This document shows positions 492 to 63,700 of a stretch of DNA of 64,000 bases, one piece after another. The notes under the pieces were generated by a model that did not search any database, was not told where the DNA came from, and saw nothing but the letters and a program-made list of their open reading frames with translations. This DNA is from Heptranchias perlo (taxonomy: Eukaryota). The stretch lies in NCBI RefSeq assembly GCF_035084215.1, contig NC_090330.1, forward strand, positions 76,880,001-76,944,000, in the 5' to 3' direction. Position 1 is the stretch's first letter. Each line of letters opens with the position of its first letter. The position numbers and the translations under genes are program-made.

Positions 492-1228
492 AGTAACAGT
501 TCCTCGTGAAAGAGTTATAAGGCTCTAACTTTATCAAGAGATTACAAGCCCTACACTATATGAGCTAAACATAAGCAACTAACTGCATTTATAAAGAAGT
601 CTTTTTATTTTTTGTTTCATTCGAGAATGTTAAAAAAAAAATGAATTTGCCATGCTGGGCACAGTCAGAAAGTGCACTGTTTTAGAAAAACTAGAACATT
701 GTACCATGTAACACAATGTACTATTCTGCTAAGTATTGGTGTGAGCTCACTTAAGGCTACAAAGTCTAATTAATAAGTACTGAGTGAGTAAATACAAATG
801 TCAGTTAAGAGACTGCAGATATTGTGGTTGATATTTTCTGTTGCTGCAGAGTTTGTACAATTCTTTTGTTTCTTGATACCTTTTTTTATCCAAGCATGAC
901 CCAGAATGTTGTGTTATGATAGTGTGATAGACCTTTGAAATGTAACAGATGGAAGTAAAGTTTTCTTGTGTATGTGTGTCTGTATATATTTATATTTTTT
1001 AAAGAATTATTTTGTTACATGCATGTAAAGTGGTAAGATTGAGGAGCTATGGTCTAATATATTCCACTGAGGAAAAAAGGGTGTAAAAGAAATGACAGCC
1101 ATCCGTGGCTAAGTAAAGAAATCAAGGATAGTATCCGACTAAAAACAAGGACATATAAGGTAGCCAAACTTAGTGGGAGGATAGAAGATTGGGAATTCTT
1201 CAAAAGACAGCAAAAAGTAACTAAAGGA

Positions 1229-3046
1229 TTGATTAAGAAAGGGAAGTTAGATTATGAAAAGAAATTAGCAAAAAATATAAAAACAGATAGCAAGAGTTTC
1301 TATAGTTATATAAAAAGAAAAAGGGTGGCTAAGGCAAACGTAGGTCCCTTAGAGGATGAGACCGGGAAATTAATGGTGGGAAACATGGAGATGGCAAAAA
1401 TGCTGAACAAATATTTTGTTTCAGTCTTTACAGTAGAGGACACTAAGAATATCCCAACACTGGACAAACAGGGGACTCTCGGGGGGGAGGAGCTAAATAC
1501 GATTAAAATCACTCAGGAGATGGTACTCAGTAAAATAATGGGACTCAAGGTGGATAAATCCCCTGGACCTGATGGCTTCCATCCTAGGGTCTTGAGGGAA
1601 GTGGCAGTAGGGATTGTGGATGCTTTGGTGATAGTTTTCCAAAATTCCCTGGACTCAGGAGAGGTCCCGGCAGATTGGAAAACTGCCAATGTAACACCGT
1701 TATTTAAAAAGGGTAGTAGGCAGAAGGCTGGAAATTATAGGCCAGTTAGCTTAACATCTGTGGTGGGTAAAATTTTGGAGTCTATTATTAAGGAGACAGT
1801 AACGGAACATTTAGATAAGCATAATTTAATAGGACAAAGTCAGCATGGCTTTATAAAGGGGAAGTCATGTCTGACAAATTTGCTTGAGTTCTTCGAGGAT
1901 ATAACGTATAGGGTGGATAAAGGGGAACCAGTGGACATCGTGTATTTAGACTTCCAGAAGGCATTCGACAAGGTGCCACATAAAAGATTATTACTTAAGA
2001 TAAAAAATCACGGGATTGGGGGTAATATTCTGGCATGGGTGGAGGATTGGTTATCGAACAGGAAGCAGAGAGTTGGGATAAATGGTTCATTTTCGGACTG
2101 GCAACCAGTAACCAGTGGTGTTCCACAGGGGTCGGTGCTGGGTCCCCAACTCTTTACAATCTATATTAACGATTTGGAGGAGGGGACCGAGTGCAACATA
2201 TCAAAATTTGCAGATGATACAAAGATGGGAGGGAAAGTAGAGAGTGAGGAGGACATAAAAAACCTGCAAGGGGATATAGACAGGCTGGGTGAGTGGGCGG
2301 AGATTTGGCAGATGCAATATAATATTGGAAAATGTGAGGTTATGCACTTTGGCAGGAAAAATCAGAGAGCAAGTTATTTTCTTAATGGCGAGAGACTGGA
2401 AAGTACTGCAGTACAAAGGGATCTGGGGGTCCTAGTGCAAGAAAATCAAAAAGTTGGTATGCAGGTGCAGCAGGTGATCAAGAAAGCCAACGGAATGTTG
2501 GCTTTTATTGCTAGGGGGATAGAATATAAAAACAAGGAGGTATTGCTGCAGTTATATAAGGTATTGGTGAGACCGCACCTGGAATACTGCATACAGTTTT
2601 GGTCTCCATACTTAAGAAAAGACATACTTGCTCTCGAGGCAGTACAAAGAAGGTTCACTCGGTTAATCCCGGGGATGAGGGGGCGGACATATGAGGAGAG
2701 GTTGAGTAGATTGGGACTCTACTCATTGGAGTTCAGAAGAATGAGAGGCGATCTTATTGAAACATATAAGATTGTGAAGGGTCTTGATCGGGTGGATGCA
2801 GTAAGGATGTTCCCAAAGATGGGTGAAACTAGAACTAGGGGGCATAATCTTAGAATAAGGGGCTGCTCTTTCAAAACTGAGATGAGGAGAAACTTCTTCA
2901 CTCAGAGGGTGGTAGGTCTGTGGAATTTGCTGCCCCAGGAAGCTGTGGAAGCTACATCATTAAATAAATTTAAAACAGAAATAGACAGTTTCCTAGAAGT
3001 AAAGGGAATTAGGGGTTATGGGGAGCGGGCAGGAAATTGGACATGA
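1229..3046 (+). CDS. CR1 ORF2 fragment (RT and C-terminal domain), no APE, stop-free
   Basis: 605-aa ORF with all non-LTR RT motifs; the frame is open back to the 5' truncation at about 1061. Confidence 0.9.
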   Translation: MIKKGKLDYEKKLAKNIKTDSKSFYSYIKRKRVAKANVGPLEDETGKLMVGNMEMAKMLNKYFVSVFTVEDTKNIPTLDKQGTLGGEELNTIKITQEMVLSKIMGLKVDKSPGPDGFHPRVLREVAVGIVDALVIVFQNSLDSGEVPADWKTANVTPLFKKGSRQKAGNYRPVSLTSVVGKILESIIKETVTEHLDKHNLIGQSQHGFIKGKSCLTNLLEFFEDITYRVDKGEPVDIVYLDFQKAFDKVPHKRLLLKIKNHGIGGNILAWVEDWLSNRKQRVGINGSFSDWQPVTSGVPQGSVLGPQLFTIYINDLEEGTECNISKFADDTKMGGKVESEEDIKNLQGDIDRLGEWAEIWQMQYNIGKCEVMHFGRKNQRASYFLNGERLESTAVQRDLGVLVQENQKVGMQVQQVIKKANGMLAFIARGIEYKNKEVLLQLYKVLVRPHLEYCIQFWSPYLRKDILALEAVQRRFTRLIPGMRGRTYEERLSRLGLYSLEFRRMRGDLIETYKIVKGLDRVDAVRMFPKMGETRTRGHNLRIRGCSFKTEMRRNFFTQRVVGLWNLLPQEAVEATSLNKFKTEIDSFLEVKGIRGYGERAGNWT

Positions 3047-3047
3047 A

Positions 3048-4647
3048 TCATAGAATCATAGAAGTTACAACATGGAAACAGGCCCTTCGGCCCAACATGT
3101 CCATGTCGCCCAGTTTATACCACTAAGCTAGTCCCAATTGCCTGCACTTGGCCCATATCCCTCGATACCCATCTTCCCCATGTAACTGTCCAAATGCTTT
3201 TTAAAAGACAAAATTGTACCCGCCTCGACTACTGCCTCTGGCAGCTCGTTCCAGACACTCACCACCCTTTGAGTGAAAAAATTGCCCCTCTGGATCCTTT
3301 TGTATCTCTCCCCTCTCACCTTAAATCTGTGCCCCCTCGTTATAGACTCCCCTACCTTTGGGAAAAGATTTTGACTATCGACCTTATCTATGCCCCTCAT
3401 TATTTTATAGACTTCTATAAGATCACCCCTTAACCTCTTACTCTCCAGGGAAAAAAGTCCCAGTCTGTCTAACCTCTCCCTGTAAGTCAAACCATCAAGT
3501 CCCGGTAGCATCCTAGTAAATCTTTTCTGCACTCTTTCTAGTTTAATAATATCCTTTCTATAATAGGGTGACCAGAACTGTACACAGTACTCCAAGTGTG
3601 GCCTCACCAATGCCCTGTACAACTTCAACAAGACATCCCAACTCCTGCATTCAATGTTCTGACCAATGAAACCAAGCATGCTGAATGCCTTCTTCACCAC
3701 CCTATCCACCTGTGACTCCACTTTCAAGGAGCTATGAACCTGTACTCCTAGATCTCTTTGTTCTATAACTCTCCCCAACGCCCTACCATTAACGGAGTAG
3801 GTCCTGGCCCGATTCGATCTACCAAAATGCATCACCTCACATTTATCTAAATTAAACTCCATCTGCCATTCATCGGCCCACTGGCCCAATTTATCAAGAT
3901 CCCGTTGCAATCCTAGATAACCTTCTTCACTGTCCACAATGCCACCAATCTTGGTGTCATCTGCAAACTTACTAACCATGCCTCCTAAATTCTCATCCAA
4001 ATCATTAATATAAATAACAAATAACAGCGGACCCAGCACCGATCCCTGAGGCACACCGCTGGACACAGGCATCCAGTTTGAAAAACAACCCTCGACAACC
4101 ACCCTCTGTCTTCTGTCGTCAAGCCAATTTTGTATCCAATTGGCTACCTCACCTTGGATCCCATGAGATTTAACCTTATGTAACAACCTACCATGCGGTA
4201 CCTTGTCAAATGCTTTGCTGAAGTCCATGTAGACCACGTCTACTGCACAGCCCTCATCTATCTTCTTGGTTACCCCTTCAAAAAACTCAATCAAATTCGT
4301 GAGACATGATTTTCCTCTCACAAAACCATGCTGACTGTTCCTAATTAGTCCCTGCCTCTCCAAATGCCTGTAGATCCTGTCCCTCAGAATACCCTCTAAC
4401 AACTTACCCACTACAGATGTCAGGCTCACTGGTCTGTAGTTCCCAGGCTTTTCCCTGCCGCCCTTCTTAAACAAAGGCACAACATTTGCTACCCTCCAAT
4501 CTTCAGGCACCTCACCTGTTGCGGTGGATGATTCAAATATCTCTGCTAGGGCACCCGCAATTTCCTCCCTAACCTCCCTTAACGTCCTGGGATACATTTC
4601 ATCATGTCTCGGAGATTTATCTACCTTGATGCGCGTTAAGACTTCCA
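3048..4647 (-). mobile_element. Young 5'-truncated CR1 LINE (different subfamily) nested in the 3' UTR of the previous element
   Basis: Stop-free 489-aa RT ORF 3128-4597; (gaatcata)n tail at about 3045-3063. Confidence 0.95.
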
Positions 4648-5489
4648 GCCCTGTGGGTGGCGGAGAGGGCCCAGGGGCTATGTGGCCGGGTCCTGCTCCG
4701 ACTTCTTGTGTTCTTTAGATTTGTGGTTGGGATCAGATCAGCCATGATCTTATTCAATGGCGGAGCAGGCTCGAGGGGCCGATTGGCCTACTCCTGCTCC
4801 AATTTCTTATGTTCTTATGTTCTTAATATAAAGTTTAACTATATGACAACTGCTTTAATTTTTTTTCCGATATAAGTTTAGTAAATGAAAATATAAAATC
4901 TGGCACAATGTAGTCTACCATCAGAACTGAATTGAAAACTGATTCAGTGGCATTCTTTCTCAATTGTTCTGGATTACTCACACAGCATCCTTAATTATTT
5001 TCCCTGGACTATACCCAGAAATAAGACAAGGCAGGCTATGCATGTAAAGTTAAAGGGACTATACTTTGATGCAATGTACATCACCATAAATTCATATGGA
5101 ATGCTGTTGAAAATCATTTATTGAAAATAAGTTTTTAGTAGGACAGTATTCTATTTGGAAAATAGTTATAATCACAATGTTAACTGCTTTATAGCATTTC
5201 CCTTTACAAAGGACCATACATGGGGGTTTTAACCACTTCTTCATGTGTTTGCAAAATCTCTTTAGTTTCAAAGTCACTTGGATGTTTTTCTTGCATTCAT
5301 ATTGTGAGATTTAAAATATTTTATTGCTGTTATCTTGCCCTTAGACTTTATGGCCATTACAGGATAACACTTTAATATATGCTGTGTATTTTTTTCTTTC
5401 TCCCTCCCCTCAGAACAATTCTGGGGTACAGTTTCACAAGTACCATTTTTCATGCATGATGCTAGACGAAGTATCTGCAGGCTGTTTGG

Positions 5490-35881: not shown

Positions 35882-36501
35882 CCGTGTTGTCCAATATATT
35901 AGACAGTTTCCTAGAAGTAAAGGGAATTAGGGGTTATGGGGAGCGGGCAGGAAATTGGACATGAAGCTGAGTTTGGATCGGTCAATGCCCTGTGGGTGGC
36001 GGAGAGGGCCCAGGGGCTATGTGGCCGGGTCCTGCTCCGACTTCTTGTGTTCTTTAGATTTGTGGTTGGGATCAGATCAGCCATAATCTTATTGAATGGC
36101 GGAGCAGGCTCGAGGGGCCGATTGGCCTACTCCTGCTCCAATTTCTTATGTTCTTATGTTCTTATTAGCCACTAACCACATGTGGCTAATTGTTCTGATC
36201 AGGAAATAAAAATTGAGTAATAAATGCTGTCGTTAGGCATGTGATCTCAATACTCCTATTCGCATGGGGAATGCATGTATGGTCTTTGTGCATTGTAAAA
36301 AGCAGATTGCACAATTGTTTTTTTGACTGTTGAGTGCTTTATTTCCTTGGTTACTGATTGGTTTGTGAAATAAATATGCACGTGAAGTACATATACCAGT
36401 ATTATGTAAGGCGTTTTCTACTAAAATTAGTGCATGTGGCTAAAACAGTGTTGCCATAGCCACACCTGTGGCTAGTCAGCAATTTCTATTGGACAGCACT
36501 G
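35882..36501. mobile_element. hAT-Charlie-type MITE resembling mammalian MER3/MER33, interrupted by a CR1 3' fragment
   Basis: TIRs ccgtgttgtccaata / tattggacagcactg; subterminal tagccactaaccacatgtggcta and tagccacacctgtggcta; right flank CTCTAGGT. Confidence 0.6.
35897..36168 (+). mobile_element. Young CR1 3' fragment with the complete double-module 3' UTR
   Basis: Near-identical to 2983-3047 plus 4648-4825; TSD TATTAG at 35897-35902 and 36163-36168. Confidence 0.92.
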
Positions 36502-36560
36502 CTCTAGGTCAAATACCAGGAGCTCCATCTGCAAATTAAAATGATCAGGGTGATCTGTTG

Positions 36561-39500
36561 GATTCCTGGGACATTGGGACCGGTTCTGGGGAAGGTGGGA
36601 CCTGTACAAGCGTGACGGGTTACACCCGAGCAGGACTGGGACCAATGTCCTCGCGGGGGTGTTTGCTAGTGCTGTTGGGGAAAGTTTAAACTAGAGTGGC
36701 AGGGGGATGGGAACCTGAGCGGGGAGTCAGAAGAGAATAAAGCTGAGAGCAGCAAGAGAGGGGAAGACCCAGGGGAAATCTACAATACAAATAGTACAAA
36801 CAGTTGTTCAATAACAAGTGAAAGGGAAAAGCGTAGAACAGCAGAAAGAAAGTGTACTTTAGGCACGACAGATAAAATAAAAACTAGAAGGCGCAAGGCG
36901 ATTAACCCAGCATCAAAGCTGTGGCAGGGGGTTGGGAACCTGAGCAGGGAGACAGAGGAAAGCGTGTCAGGAAGGGACAGAAGGTATGGAGTAAAAGGTA
37001 AAGTGTTAAAAAAGGAAGAAGCAGGAACTAAGTGTCACAAAACATATTTGAAAGTTCTTTATCTGAATGCACGTAGCATTCGTAACAAAATGGACGAGTT
37101 AACGGCACAAATAACTATGTATGGGTATGATCTTGTGGCCATTACAGAAACATGGCTGCAGGGTGACAATGACTGGGAATTAAATATGCCAGGGTATTTA
37201 ACAATCAGGAAGGACAGGCAGGAAGGAAGGGGAGGTGGGGTGGTTATGTTAATAAAGGAAGGAATTACTGTAATACAGAGAAATGATATTGGGACAAAAG
37301 ATCAGGACAATGAAACAGTTTGGGTAGAGATAAGGAATAATAAGGGGAAAAAAAACATTAGTGGGCGTAGTATATAGGCCTCCTATAGTTGCAACTCTGC
37401 TGGAAGAAGTATTAATCAGGAAATAGTCGGGGCATGTAATAAGGGAACAGCTATAATTATGGGGGATTTTAACTATCATATTAACTGGACAAATCAAATT
37501 GGGCAGGGCAGCCTTGAGGAAGAGTTTATTGAGTGTATTAGGGATGGATTTCTTGAGCAGTATGTAACTGATCCTACAAGGGGGCAGGCAACCTTGGACC
37601 TGGTCCTGTGCAATGAGCCAGGATTAATTAATAATGTCCTAGTTAAGGATCCCCTTGGAATGAGTGACCATAACATGGTTACATTCCATATCCAATTAGA
37701 GGGTGAGAAGGTTGGTTCTCAAACAAGCGTAGGCGTACTGAGCTTGAATAAAGGAGACTCTGATGGTATGAGAGCGGAATTGATTAAAGTGGACTGGGAA
37801 AATAGATTAAAGGGTAAGATGGTACATGAGCAGTGGTGTTCATTTAAGGAGTTATTTTACAACTTTCAAAAAATATATATTCCACTGAGGGGAAAAAAGG
37901 GTGTAAAAGAAATGACAGCCATCTGTGGCTAAGTAAAGAAATTAAGGATAGTATCCGACTAAAATCAAGGACATATAAGGGAGCCAAACTTAGTGGGAGG
38001 ATAGAAGATTGGGAAGTGTTCAAAAGACAGCAAAAAGTAACTAAAGGATTGATTAAGAAAGGGAAGATAGATTATGAAAATAAATTAGCAAAAAATATAA
38101 AAACAGATAGCAAGAGTTTCTACAGTTATATAAAAAGAAAAAGGGTGGCTAAGGCAAACGTAGGTCCCTTAGAGGATGAGACCGGGAAATTAATGGTGGG
38201 AAACATGGAGATGGCAAAAATGCTGAACAAATATTTTGTTTCAGTCTTTACGGTAGAGGACACTAAGAATATCCCAACACTGGACAAACAGGGGGATCTA
38301 GGGGGGGGAGGAGCTAAATACGATTAAAATCACTAAGGAATTGGTACTCAGTAAAAATAATGGGACTCAAGGCGGATAACTCCCCTGGACCTGATGGCTT
38401 ACATCTGAGGGTCTTGAGGGAAGTGGCAGTAGGGATTGTGGATGCTTTGGTAATAATTTTCCAAAATACTCTGGACTCGGCAAAGGTCCCGGCAGATTGG
38501 AAAACTGCTAATGTAACACCCTTATTTAAAAAGGGTAGCAGGCAGAAGGCTGGAAATTATAGACCAGTTAGCCTAACATCTGTGGTGGGTAAAATTTTAG
38601 AGTTTATTAAGGAGACAGTAACGGAACATTTGGATAAACATAATTTAATAGGACAAAGTCAGCATGGCTTTATGAAGGGGAAGTCATGTCTGACAAATTT
38701 GCTTGAGTTCTTTGAGGACATAACGTACAGGGTGGATAAAGGGGAACCAGTGGACGTAGTGTATTTAGACTTCCAGAAGGCATTCGACAAGGTGCCACAT
38801 AAAAGATTGTTGCTCAAGATAAAGAATCACTGGATTGGGGGTAATATTCTGGCATGGGTGGAGGATTGGTTATCTAACAGGAAGCAGAGAATTGGGATAA
38901 ATGGTTCATTCTCGAACCGGCAACCAGTAGCCAGTGGTGTTCCACAGGGGTTGGTGCTGGGTCCCCAACTCTTTACAATCTATATTAACGATTTGGAGGA
39001 CGGGACCGAGTGTAGCGTATCAAAGTTTGCAGATGATACAAAGATGGGAGGGAAAGTAGAGAGTGAGGAGGACATAAAAAACCTACAAGGGGATATAGAC
39101 TGGCTGGGTGAGTGGGCGGAGATTTGGCAGATGCAATACAATATTGGAAAATGTGAGGTTATGCACTTTGGCAGGAAAAATCAGAGAGCAAGTTATTATC
39201 TTAATGGCGAGAAACTGGAAAGTACTGCAGTACAAAGGGATCTGGGGGTCCTAGTGCAAGAAAATCAAAAAGTTAGTATGCAGGTGCAGCAGGTGATCAA
39301 GAAGGCCAACGGAATGTTGGCTTTTATTGCTCGGGGGATAGAATATAAAAACAGGGAGGTATTGCAGCAATTATATAAGGTATTGGTGAGACCACACCTG
39401 GAATACTGCATACAGTTTTGGTGTCCATACTTAAGAAAAGACATACTTGCTCTCGAGGCAGTACAAAGAAGGTTCACTCGGTTAATCCCGGGATGAGGTG

Positions 39501-39968
39501 GTGGACATATGAGGAGAGGTTGAGTAGATTGGGACTCCTCTCATTCTTCTGAACTCCAATGAGTAGCGATCTTATTGAAACATATAAGATTGTGAAGGGG
39601 CTTTATTGGGTGGATGCGGTAAGGATGTTCCCAAGGATGGGTGAAACTAGAACTGGGGGGCATAATCTTAGAATAAGGGGCTGCTCTTTCAAAACTGAGA
39701 TGAGGAGAAACTTCTTCACTCAGAGGGTAGTAGGTCTATGGAATTTGCTGCCCCAGGAAGCTGTGGAAGCTACATCATTAAATAAATTTAAAACAGAAAT
39801 AGACAGTTTCCTGGAAGTAAAGGGAATTAGGGGTTACGGGGAGCGGGCAGGAAGTTGGACATGAATTTAGATTTGAGGTTAAGATCAGATTAGCCATGAT
39901 CTTATTGAATGGCGGAGCAGGCTCGAAGGGCCGATTGGCCTACTCCTGCTCCTATTTCTTATGTTCTT
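36561..39968 (+). mobile_element. Long CR1 LINE: ORF1 C-terminus (SGNH esterase-like) plus complete but disrupted ORF2 (APE-RT)
   Basis: HWDRFWGRWDLYKRDGLH..GTNVLA ending TTA AAC TAG at 36694; APE (NARSI, AITETW, GDFN, LDLV, SDH); RT nearly identical to 1061-3046. Confidence 0.95.
36685..36694 (+). promoter_or_regulatory. Candidate -1 ribosomal frameshift site U_UUA_AAC immediately before the ORF1 stop
   Basis: ORF1 codons AGT TTA AAC TAG; the -1 frame (TTT at 36685) is open through the APE ORF annotated from 36964. Confidence 0.6.
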
Positions 39969-40439
39969 GTATATGTTTGTTTGAGGCCATCAGTTGTAGC
40001 AGTGTTTTTTTTTTCTGTTGGGACCTCTGGCACATATTTGCACTGAGATTTTTTGTCCTAATAACTTGCAAAAGACAGTCTCAGCCACCGAAGGAAAACA
40101 GTGCTGTCATTGTAGAAAGTCAGTCAACAAATATGAAAAAGTATAGAAATCTGATACGGAGAGACAGAAATCTGATGACCACGTGGAGCCTCTAAGGTCC
40201 AGTGACCCCAGTTTGTAATCCTGAGTTAAACTACTTTCACTTGTCTTTTTCTCTTTCTTGTATGTCATTGTGCTTTACTCCATTTAATGATCACGAAGGT
40301 GGGCGGGTGAAATGTTTGCAAATCATTGATGATGCTGATTACCACCAAAGTAAATTTGGCCGACTTGCCCTCTGGTTTTTCCTTCTTGATGATTCTGTTG
40401 AAGAACTTATTCTGTTGGGAAACAAGGGGCACAAGCCTT

Positions 40440-40875: not shown

Positions 40876-40941
40876 GGGGGAAGAGGAATAAGTGAATTTT
40901 TGCTATCAAATGTTATAATACTCATTTATTTTTCTTAATAG

Positions 40942-41283
40942 GTGCCTTGGCTGGACCAGTTGTTGTTGATCGAAAGGTATCTGCAATTTTGGGCAAAAAT
41001 GCCACCTTAAAGTGTTTGGTTATGGTGAAAGAAACTGTAACTCAGATCTCCTGGGAGAAGCAAGAACATGGGACCACAGAAACTGTTGCAGTGTTTAATC
41101 CTATTTATGGAATCTCAATCCAAGGGAACTATCCAGGAAGAGCTGTATTCACAAACCCATCTTTAAAAGATGCAACAATTCTTATTACCAAAGTTGGGTT
41201 TTCAGATTCTGGAAACTACATCTGCAAGGTGGCCACTTTCCCATTGGGAAATTACCAAGAAACAAGCACTGTGACTGTGATCG
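40942..41283 (+). CDS. nectin3: Nectin-3 internal exon encoding the Ig V-type domain (342 nt, phase 1-1)
   Basis: tttttcttaatag| acceptor and |gtatgt donor; GALAGPVVV..GKNATLKC..TQISWEK..DATI...FSDSGNYICKVATFPLGN matches vertebrate NECTIN3 (PVRL3) as I recall it. Confidence 0.93.
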
Positions 41284-41583
41284 GTATGTATCCTATTAAA
41301 ACCCTGTACTAGTAGAAATTAGAAGATTTATTTTGTAATTTGTCCTGTTTGTCCCTGAGTCTTCGATTATCTGCCTACCTATCTATTAACACCAATTTGC
41401 CACTAAAGACACTCAAAAAAAAAAGTCATTGCAACAAAAACTAATTAGTAATACAAATGCTGGGTAGTAAATGAGATTTAAGCCACCCGATTGGTACTTT
41501 CTGGTACAGATTTTATACTTCTAGATATGCTAACATATTGCAGAGCTGTTTAAAAGAAAGAACAAATAAAGTTGCATTTATAT

Positions 41584-60747: not shown

Positions 60748-63700
60748 GCCCATCGTGTCCGCGCCGGCCATCAAGCCCTGTCTAATCTAATCCCATATTC
60801 CAGCATTTGGTCCGTAGCCTTGTATGCTATGGCATTTCAAGTGCTCATCCAAATGCTTCTTGAATGTTGTGAGGGTTCCTGCCTCCACAACCCTTTCAGG
60901 CAGTGAGTTCCAGACTCCAACCACCCTCTGGGTGAAAAAGTTCTTTCTCAAATCCCCTCTAAACCTCCCGCCTTTTACCTTGAATCTATGGCCCCTTGTT
61001 ATAGAACCCTCAACGAAGGGAAAAAGCTCCTTAGTATCCATCCTATCTGTGCCCCTCATAATTTTGTACACCTCAATCATGTCCCCCCTCAGTCTCCTCT
61101 GCTCCAAGGAAAACAAACCCAATCTTCCCAGTCTCTCTTCATAGCTGAAGCGCTCCAGCCCTGGTAACATCCTGGTGAATCTCCTCTGCACCCTCTCCAA
61201 AGCGATCACATCCTTCCTGTAGCGTGGCGACCAGAACTGCTCACAGTACTCCAGCCGTGGCCTAACCAGTGCTCTATACAGCTCCATCATAACCTCCCTG
61301 CTCTTATATTCTATGCCTCGGCCAATAAAGGCAAGCATCCCATATGCCTTCTTTACCACCCTATCTACCTGTTCCGCCGCCCTCAGGGATCTGTGAACTT
61401 GCACACCAAGATCCCTCTGACCCTCTGTCTTGCCTAGGGTCCTCCCATTCATTGTGTATTCCCTTGCCTTGTTAGTCCCTCCAAAGTGTATCACCTCGCA
61501 CTTTTCCGGGTTAAATTCCATTTGCCACTGTTCCGCCCATCTGACCAACCCATCTATATCGTCCTGCAGACTGAGGCTATCCTCCTCGCTATTTACCACC
61601 CTACCAATTTTTGTATCATCAGCGAACTTACTGATCATACCTTTTACATTCATATCCAAGTCGTTAATGTAGACCACAAACAGCAAGGGACCCAGCACCG
61701 ATCCCTGTGGTACCCCACTGGCCACAGGCTTCCAGTCATAAAAACAACCTTCGACCATCACCCTCTGCCTTCTGCCACTAAGCCAGTTTTGTATCCAAAG
61801 TGCCAAGGCACCCTGGATTCCATGGGCTCGTACCTTCTTGACCAGTCTCCTGTGCGGGACTTTGTCGAAGGCCTTACTGAAATCCATGCATACCACATCC
61901 ACTGCGTTACCCTCATCCACACCCCCTCAAAAAATTCAATCAAATTAGTCAGACATGATCTTCCCTTGACAAAGCCATGTTGACTATCCCTGATTAATCC
62001 TTGCTTCTCCAAGTGGAGACTAATTTTGTCCTTCAGAATTTTTTCCAATAATTTTCCTACCACTGATGTTAGGCTCACTGGCCTGTAGTTCCCCGGTTTT
62101 TCCCTACTCCCCTTCTTGAATAATGGTACTACATTAGCGGTTCTCCAGTCCTCTGGCACATCCCCTGTGGCCAGAGAGGTTCTGAATATATGTGTTAGAG
62201 CCCCCGCAATCTCCTCCTTTGCCTCACACAGTAGCCTGGGATACATTTCGTCCGGGCCTGGGGATTTATCCATTTTTAGGCCTGCTAAAACCGCCAATAC
62301 CTCCTCCCGCTCGATGTTAATATGTTAGTATATCACAGTTCCCCTGCCGTATTTCTATGTCCACATCGTCCTTCTCCATCGTGAAAACAGATGCAAAAAA
62401 TTCATTTAGAACCCCTCCTACATCTGCCGGCTCCACACACAGATTGCCATTTTTGTCCCTAATGGGCCCTATTTTTTCCCTAGTCATCCTCTTACCCTTA
62501 ATATACTTATAAAACATCTTAGGATTTTCCTTTATTTTGCTCGCCAGTGTTATTTCATGGCCCCTCCTTGATCTCCTAATTTTTTTAAGTATCCCCCTGC
62601 ACTTTTTGTACTCCTCTAGGGCTTCCTCCGTCTTTAGCCTTTTGTATCTGCCAAAAGCCCTCCTTTTTTTCCTAATCCATTCTCGTATATCCCCTGACAT
62701 CCAAGGTTCCCTGGAGTTCTTGGAACCACCCTCGACCTTTACGGGAACATGTTGCCATTGTATGGTCTCAATCTCCCTTCTGAACGACTCCCATTGTTCC
62801 GATGCGGATTTTCCTACAAGCAGCTGATCCCAGTCCATTTTGGCCAGATCCTGCCTTATCCTATTCAAATCGGCCTTCCCCCAATTTAGAACCTTTATTT
62901 CCGGCCCCTCCCTGTCCTTTTCCATGACCACCTTAAATCTCACCGAATTATGGTCACTGTCACCAAAGTGCTCACCTACTAGCACTTCTTCCACTTGGCC
63001 GGCCACATTCCCTAGAATTAGGTCCAGTACCGCCCCCTCTCTTGTAGGACTTTCTACATGCTGGCTCAAAAAGCTCTCCTGGATGCACGTTAAGAATTTT
63101 GTACCCTCTAAGCCTTTTACACTCTGGGTATCCCAGTTAATATTGGGGAAGTTAAAATCCCCCACTATTATTACCCTATTATTTGCACAATTTTCTGAGA
63201 TTTGCCTACATATCTGTTCCTCTATCTCCCCCTGACTGTTTGGGGGCCTATTGTACACTCCCATCAAAGTGCTTGCCCCCTTTTTGTTTTTAAGCTCCAC
63301 CCATATGGCCTCATTAGAGGAACCTGCTAATATATCATCCCTCCTTATGGCAGTAATTGATTCTTTAATTAATATTGCGACCCCCCCTCCTCTTATACCT
63401 CCCCCTCTGTCTCGCCTGAAGATTCTGTACCCCGGAATATTGAGCTGCCAGTCTTGCCCCTCCCTCAACCATGTCTCTGTGACAGCAACAATATCATACT
63501 CCCATGTGTTTATCAACACCTTCAGTTCATCCACCTTATTCGCAAGACTCCTTGCATTAAAATAGATGCCATCCAGCCTTGCCCGTACATATTTGCCCTG
63601 TCTTCCAAGCTGACTTTTTTTCTTTATATTTGGCTGCACATCACCCCCTATTGTAGCTCCACTCTGTATCCCATCCCCCTGCCAAGTTAGTTTAAACCCC

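Follow-up and report, generated by a model that had tools for sequence, protein, structure and literature searches.

A conserved TTTAAAC junction in CR1 retrotransposons as a candidate site of programmed -1 ribosomal frameshifting

The DNA considered here, in the following called the window, is a stretch of 64,000 nucleotides (nt) from Heptranchias perlo (contig NC_090330.1, positions 76,880,001 to 76,944,000). It is part of a genome of 3.25 Gb and is rich in reverse-transcriptase fragments of long interspersed nuclear elements (LINEs). One of its elements carries, at the junction between the first and the second open reading frame (ORF1 and ORF2), the heptamer TTTAAAC, and this junction is the subject of the present analysis. 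By its sequence the element is a CR1 LINE with an SGNH esterase ORF1 and an ORF2 coding for an apurinic/apyrimidinic endonuclease (APE) and a reverse transcriptase. Pfam assigns PF03372 (E 7.8e-06) and PF00078 (E 9.8e-28) to the ORF2 pieces in the window and Lipase_GDSL_2 (PF13472, E 8.7e-16) to the full ORF1 of a copy of the same family (L016), and the L1 endonuclease matches the CR1 endonuclease with an E value of 1e-08. Homologues of the esterase ORF1 were found in sharks, rays, coelacanth, turtles, lizards and frog, the nearest named ones being from sharks and rays.

The layout of the junction is given in Table 1. The positions that an earlier note on this DNA had assigned to the heptamer, to the two stop codons and to the gap between them are all correct, and a distance of 22 nt is the most frequent overlap in four (F1-F4) of the six families from this genome. 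Equally accurate were its statements that the -1 frame stays open to the endonuclease Asn (codon 128 from the slip-site Phe), that the first ATG in this frame, at 37090, is codon 136, and that the ATG at 36707 belongs to the ORF1 frame, where a stop follows after 3 codons. The earlier note was silent on the 5' truncation and the broken ORF2 of the copy. The alignment to longer copies begins near 36558, and ORF2 is interrupted in several frames; therefore, the window copy is dead and cannot make a fusion protein. A partial duplicate of the junction downstream (36921..36959) has retained the G run and the frame and lacks the heptamer, and family F5 represents the short form. At the second junction of the window, on the minus strand, the Asn is codon 47 and the first AUG codon 145.

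Table 1. Features of the two CR1 junctions in the window (window positions)
Feature	Position	Strand	Remark
CR1 copy carrying the junction	~36558-39970	+	junction at its 5' end
CR1 ORF1 (SGNH esterase), last 46 codons and stop	36554..36694	+	element 5'-truncated
TAG shutting the -1 frame	36667..36669	+	22 nt before ORF1 stop
Slippery heptamer T_TTA_AAC, in register of ORF1	36685..36691	+	
ORF1 stop abutting the heptamer on its 3' side	36692..36694	+	TAG here; TAA/TGA in other lineages
G5 run, candidate stimulator, then NN-GGG	36702..36706	+	nt 11-15 past heptamer
-1 frame linker without AUG, 127 codons	36685..37065	+	
Second copy of 36696-36734	36921..36959	+	225 nt (75 codons) downstream
Asn of the endonuclease motif NARS, counterpart of L1 Asn14 in the alignment	37066..37068	+	8 codons before first AUG (37090-37092)
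ORF2 remnant, APE endonuclease and reverse transcriptase	37066..39864	+	interrupted by stops/frame changes
Second window junction, family F3, 80% identical to first	63675..63696	-	heptamer 63696-63690, TAA to 63687, G5 63679-63675

One copy proves little; the case is built on conservation. Within the window TTTAAAC occurs 11 times on both strands, a 10-mer with 1 mismatch is at chance level (6 seen versus 6.49 expected), and 10 of the 755 stop-to-stop frames of at least 40 codons end in any canonical heptamer. Both window frames that end in TTTAAAC are CR1 ORF1 ends.

Codon use was compared in 23 lineage representatives, all of them single natural copies, which comprise 15 from metagenomes and 8 from the own genome, the latter picked after their frames had been seen. 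T_TTA_AAC precedes the ORF1 stop in 22 of the 23; the remaining representative has G_TTA_AAC, which is listed as the slip site of equine arteritis virus (PMC5009743). Set against synonymous expectation, as the earlier note had proposed, the heptamer stands out: the last two ORF1 codons are TTA (23/23) and AAC (23/23), while background use is 15% of Leu codons for TTA and 41% of Asn codons for AAC, and the preceding wobble base is T in 22/23, over codons for Gly, Ala, Ser and Cys. Of 23 further conserved columns of ORF1, none is confined to a single codon (modal share 0.38-0.80 among the 18 codon-alignable representatives). The stop itself varies between TAG, TAA and TGA, each of which keeps Leu in the -1 frame. 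Judged by these codons, the heptamer is conserved beyond protein need.

The same motif recurs among the copies of the own genome. The 140 loci obtained contained one duplicate, which was taken out, and with the second window copy included the set comprises 140 distinct junctions; ORF1 ends were placed by a profile without the last 12 residues, and L171, where an indel shifts the frame, was re-read by eye. TTTAAAC is present in 137 of the 140, distributed over six families, and the rest comprises two TTTGAAC and one TTTAAGC, a count biased to the motif in F1, since the set consists of best-scoring candidates and the F1 DNA query held the heptamer. Copies of F3 differ by a median of 0.6%, i.e., this family is very young.

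Other animals yielded further junctions. When metagenomes were scanned for a pattern that lies some 140 codons upstream of the junction, 44 loci were returned, 15 of which reach it; dropped were L032, L040, L043, L044, L047 and L063, which end before the junction or are unrelated to it, and 23 loci without anchor. The 15 junctions comprise 14 TTTAAAC and 1 GTTAAAC, and from the similarity of their proteins we read 13 as bird- or reptile-like and 2 (L031, L034) as resembling the invertebrate-like clade. In the first 400 characters of each sequence of the supplement to PMC13343379, TTTAAACTA matches 23 times, and 17 matches resemble ORF1/ORF2 junctions by eye, from alligator, crocodile, bullfrog, coelacanth, bowfin, halosaur, chimaera, rays and sharks. 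These matches were selected by the motif and hence show breadth, not frequency. The others fall into CR1 5' ends (2, in Squalus consensus rows) and L2/Rex1 rows (4). GATTTAAAC also lies upstream in two bird- or reptile-like elements (L039:62 and L037:1072), and such TTTAAAC-like text in CR1 5' ends may be a TATA-like motif.

Our search of viral contigs found no relative of ORF1. In prokaryote genome contigs query A1 found none, and query A3 gave 21 weak matches, mostly bacterial esterases. The only A3 match with an APE downstream (L187:2001-3184) is a distant esterase plus APE element in a contig of a Sedimenticola metagenome-assembled genome, likely host DNA; its ORF1 stop is without slippery heptamer, its APE frame overlaps ORF1 and its first Met comes late. 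A shark-like CR1 ORF1 with 60% identity, protein P0011, is entered for Pseudomonas aeruginosa, probably through contamination.

Protein ends provide a view of the heptamer in more distant elements. Protein searches returned 288 ORF1 proteins, of which 240 reach the anchor and 219 end at most 10 residues from the expected place. Asn is the last residue in 158 of these 219, preceded by Leu (LN, 120), Gly (GN, 26), Lys (KN, 4) or another residue (8), and Leu, Gly and Lys all have XXA codons, which fits the X_XXA_AAC requirement. The residue before LN has a codon able to end in T in 118/120 proteins. Before GN it is Gln in 21/26, and a codon unable to end in G occurs in 0/26; all four KN proteins, which form one cluster, have Ser in this place. 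The context before LN and GN covaries with the penultimate residue (Fisher p 8e-14, or 5e-6 after thinning), a significance that is overstated, since kin share labels. The ends xLN, QGN and SKN would thus match U_UUA_AAC, G_GGA_AAC and A_AAA_AAC, three of the four heptamers rated most shifty in mammalian ribosomes (PMC5009743). GN and KN proteins are known without their DNA, so that a switching between heptamers is what we infer here. In the own genome, elements ending in QGN or SKN were sought, and none came closer than about 44%; a fixed-gap pattern for them matched 0/205 loci. When the esterase sequences, minus their final 12 residues, were arranged in a tree, LN was nearly universal in the vertebrate CR1 clade and absent from a fish L2-type clade, and in a third clade LN, GN, KN and other ends are interleaved. 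An invertebrate-like sub-branch (P0104, P0171, P0202, P0276, P0219) ends in FFR, FFH or FLGRV, possibly reflecting U-rich slip sites.

Beyond the heptamer, the frame is kept. Of the 16 representatives in which the endonuclease Asn was located, 15 have it in the -1 frame, and 14 of those are open; L057 was left out of this count, because its NARS at codon 14 is linker text. The linker from the slip site to the Asn comes in 12 lengths from 117 to 381 nt, and F1 differs from F5 by a frame-keeping extension of 225 nt. A single-sequence search of the PDB was too weak, and it was a profile of 11 endonuclease domains that gave the alignment, where the Asn corresponds to L1 Asn14 and the Glu of an ETW motif to L1 Glu43, both catalytic-site residues (PMC8565326). 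No AUG precedes the Asn in 27/28 open copies of F3, 18/23 of F1, 7/12 of F2 and 2/2 of F5. In F3, where the Asn is codon 48, the usual first AUG is codon 146, i.e., 98 codons past the Asn and beyond the equivalents of Asn14 and Glu43.

Downstream of the stop a second conserved element was found. The earlier note had described a G-rich block starting at 36697, 5 nt past the heptamer; the start is right, but the conserved core is a run of five G (G5) after a 10-nt spacer rather than the whole block. At nt 11-15 past the heptamer G is present in 21/22, 22/22, 21/22, 19/21 and 19/21 representatives, often followed by two bases and GGG, and in the -1 frame two of these five nucleotides fall on wobble positions. 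GGGG occurs within nt 4-22 in all 21 long-enough representatives versus 13% of 863 background windows. Copies of family F2 (L075-L104) vary in the length of the G run, and in only 12 of the 30 does the -1 frame stay open as far as the Asn. The best ViennaRNA fold holds a G-quadruplex, mostly a two-tier one, in 10 of 22 sequences; frameshifting in synthetic constructs is stimulated by G-quadruplexes, and as of 2016 no use of them in nature was known (PMC5009743). The fixed position of G5 agrees with protein-activated frameshifting of the arterivirus type, where a C-rich protein-binding motif follows after a spacer of 9-10 nt (PMC6675879).

The junction is a real, deeply conserved signal of the CR1 family in its layout, conservation, frame and AUG positions, and comparison at the family level backs the programmed -1 frameshift suggested by the earlier note, if not for the window copy itself. 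Taken together, we regard it as quite probable that CR1 LINEs produce ORF2 by a programmed -1 frameshift at T_TTA_AAC. Most ribosomes would halt at the ORF1 stop and release the ORF1 protein (ORF1p). In a minority, tRNA-Leu on UUA and tRNA-Asn on AAC would re-pair to UUU and AAA, and the slipped ribosomes would continue as ...L-N-L-E-W-Q-G. The adjacent stop codon may cause the pause together with the G5/GGG element, the latter acting as a two-tier G-quadruplex or through a protein bound to it; in one case frameshifting depends on a stop codon close by (PMC5009743). The predicted product is a fusion of ORF1 (esterase), linker, endonuclease and reverse transcriptase, and, as for Gag-Pol, the frameshift would set a high ratio of ORF1p to ORF2 protein (ORF2p) and keep the enzymes attached to the particle formed by ORF1p. 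As a transframe peptide, the earlier note had also put forward F-K-L, in place of which the usual slippage rules would give L-K-L as a minor form. In three natural single copies (L124 and the proteins P0036 and P0141) ORF1 and ORF2 share one frame owing to an indel, and F-K-L is read at the junction. Longer fused proteins were also sought; the 5 matches included no fused CR1 family, which is weak evidence.

Several observations weigh against a frameshift, in addition to the selection of the own-genome junctions and representatives mentioned above and the reading of two heptamers from protein ends only. All 16 true representatives encode the endonuclease Asn by AAT, perhaps due to CpG decay, and one fixed Asn codon can thus arise without frameshifting; fixation of AAC alone accordingly weighs little, and TTA and the preceding wobble base weigh more. 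No common base-paired stimulator emerged in local folds (mean fold z -0.21 for 22 sequences, 0 consensus pairs), which revealed no hairpin 5-9 nt downstream either, pseudoknots and long-range pairs being outside the models, and Rfam returned 2 weak matches far below the gathering score. A residue other than Asn closes 61 of the 219 ORF1 proteins, among them the fish L2-type clade and some members of the invertebrate-like clade. Finally, the absence of AUG before the Asn in the -1 frame, asserted by the earlier note, holds for the window copy but is not universal: in F4 an in-frame AUG overlaps the stop (UAAUG) in 26/31 open copies, and in 6/23 representatives an AUG lies close to the ORF1 stop, at a distance of 2 or 5 nt from its first base; one further representative has an AUG 16 nt upstream.

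These AUG codons could reflect a mixture of lineages, in which the frameshift is ancestral and F4 and several bird-like families have added reinitiation at an AUG as the main source of ORF2p. As a general account this is unlikely, if worth keeping in view. Families with an AUG by the stop retain the full heptamer and the G run; the AUG perhaps encodes a Met that arose by chance at a linker position of variable codon use, and it is missing in 5 of the 31 open F4 copies. A mixed state in the AUG-bearing families is possible alongside frameshifting in CR1 at large.

Termination-reinitiation throughout the family, the serious competitor of the frameshift although we consider it distinctly improbable, would mean that ribosomes stop at ORF1 and restart nearby in the -1 frame, at an AUG or another codon, with ORF2p made as a separate protein and the heptamer and G run serving as the reinitiation signal. 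L1 ORF2 tolerates the loss of its own AUG. Besides the UAAUG of F4 and the AUG at +2 or +5, where two representatives have GTG at the same codon, this account can draw on SART1, which employs UAAUG and a downstream element, and on the unconventional reinitiation of L1 (PMC3708506, PMC5972666). Moreover, UGGGA, the motif of TURBS-type reinitiation, is found at most 110 nt upstream in 14/23 representatives; yet its distance is inconstant (23 to 110 nt), and 9/23 lack the motif. An AUG at or next to the stop, as reinitiation wants, is a feature of F4 and not of the representatives overall (6/23), some F4 copies and the sister family F5 have none near the stop, and 11 and 13 different codons occur at positions 4 and 5, respectively, of the -1 frame. 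Reinitiation also leaves unexplained the exact X_XXY_YYZ register and the covariation of LN, GN and KN ends.

It is very improbable that protein constraint alone, on the terminal Leu-Asn of ORF1 and on Phe-Lys-Leu in the overlap, shaped the junction, with ORF2 made from a separate or spliced RNA: Leu-Asn does end 120 of 219 ORF1 proteins, the conserved endonuclease Asn codon is also fixed, and the TTTAAAC-like text in CR1 5' ends (L037, L039, two Squalus rows) perhaps indicates a promoter-type motif, but ORF1 constraint fixes neither TTA nor the preceding wobble base, a splice acceptor requires AG where 108/141 rows from the own genome have TAA as the stop and some reptile-like lineages TGA, and a separate RNA still requires an AUG, which is absent in F1, F3 and F5. 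Among the variants listed, contigs from four runs showed no GT..AG joint at the junction, and such contigs cannot show expression or its absence. Transcriptional slippage was rejected, because the sole long run (G) lies past the ORF1 stop.

The window contains further CR1 sequences. A second 5'-truncated copy of the same family at 1057-3048 (+) is 94.7% identical and has an open ORF2 stretch of 662 codons. Short CR1 3'-end pieces at 35900-36155 (+), just upstream of the element, resemble those at 4658-4816. An immunoglobulin V-set exon, which we take to be nectin-like, is located at 40896-41312 (+; Pfam V-set, E 2e-15). Just upstream, the same strand carries the CR1 copy, probably in an intron.

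In the open literature we found no report of CR1 frameshifting; the original CR1 papers (Haas 1997, Haas 2001, Kajikawa 1997), which reportedly describe the CR1 junction, were outside this comparison and may mention a frameshift, so that novelty is unsettled. The word frameshift is absent from the main text of PMC13343379 and PMC4120745, and no CR1 is among the frameshift cases in the first 300,000 of the 449,034 characters of PMC5009743; parts of PMC2881922, PMC11835228, PMC2734521, PMC3905857 and PMC4316615 were also compared. CR1 is the dominant retrotransposon in most vertebrate species (PMC13343379), and in the portions of reviews compared, ORF2p production in two-ORF LINEs is resolved for L1 and SART1 only. 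If CR1 indeed frameshifts, its expression would be Gag-Pol-like, ORF2 annotations that start at the first Met would miss active-site residues, and the counting of intact copies would change. The junction cassette spans about 30 nt, and its G5 element possibly represents a novel type of stimulator.

The putative CR1 frameshift has counterparts in several known systems. The earlier note had called -1 frameshifting typical of retroviruses and long-terminal-repeat elements; for LINEs a precedent was already stated: TRE5-A and TRE3-A of Dictyostelium, which are non-long-terminal-repeat elements of the L1 clade, are stated to need a -1 frameshift for ORF2 (PMC5911963). Their ORF2 likewise codes for APE and reverse transcriptase, and they differ from CR1 in clade and in the type of ORF1. 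With SART1 and L1, CR1 shares a two-ORF LINE RNA and, in F4, the UAAUG; most CR1 lineages examined are without AUG near the stop, whereas L1 has a 63-nt spacer (PMC5972666). The window element agrees with canonical vertebrate CR1 with a type IV esterase ORF1 in its zinc-finger-like N-terminus, SGNH esterase, APE and reverse transcriptase (PMC13343379, PMC4120745). The -1 frameshift systems described in PMC5009743 use the same heptamers, with a structural protein upstream and the polymerase in the -1 frame; unlike these, CR1 combines a stop right after the heptamer and a fixed G5 with a LINE host, and no conserved hairpin was found. In the protein-activated -2/-1 frameshift of the arteriviruses PRRSV and SHFV, a C-rich motif bound by PCBP and nsp1beta replaces the structure (PMC6675879), and in CR1 a putative G-rich counterpart is likewise short, of low complexity and set at a similar spacing.
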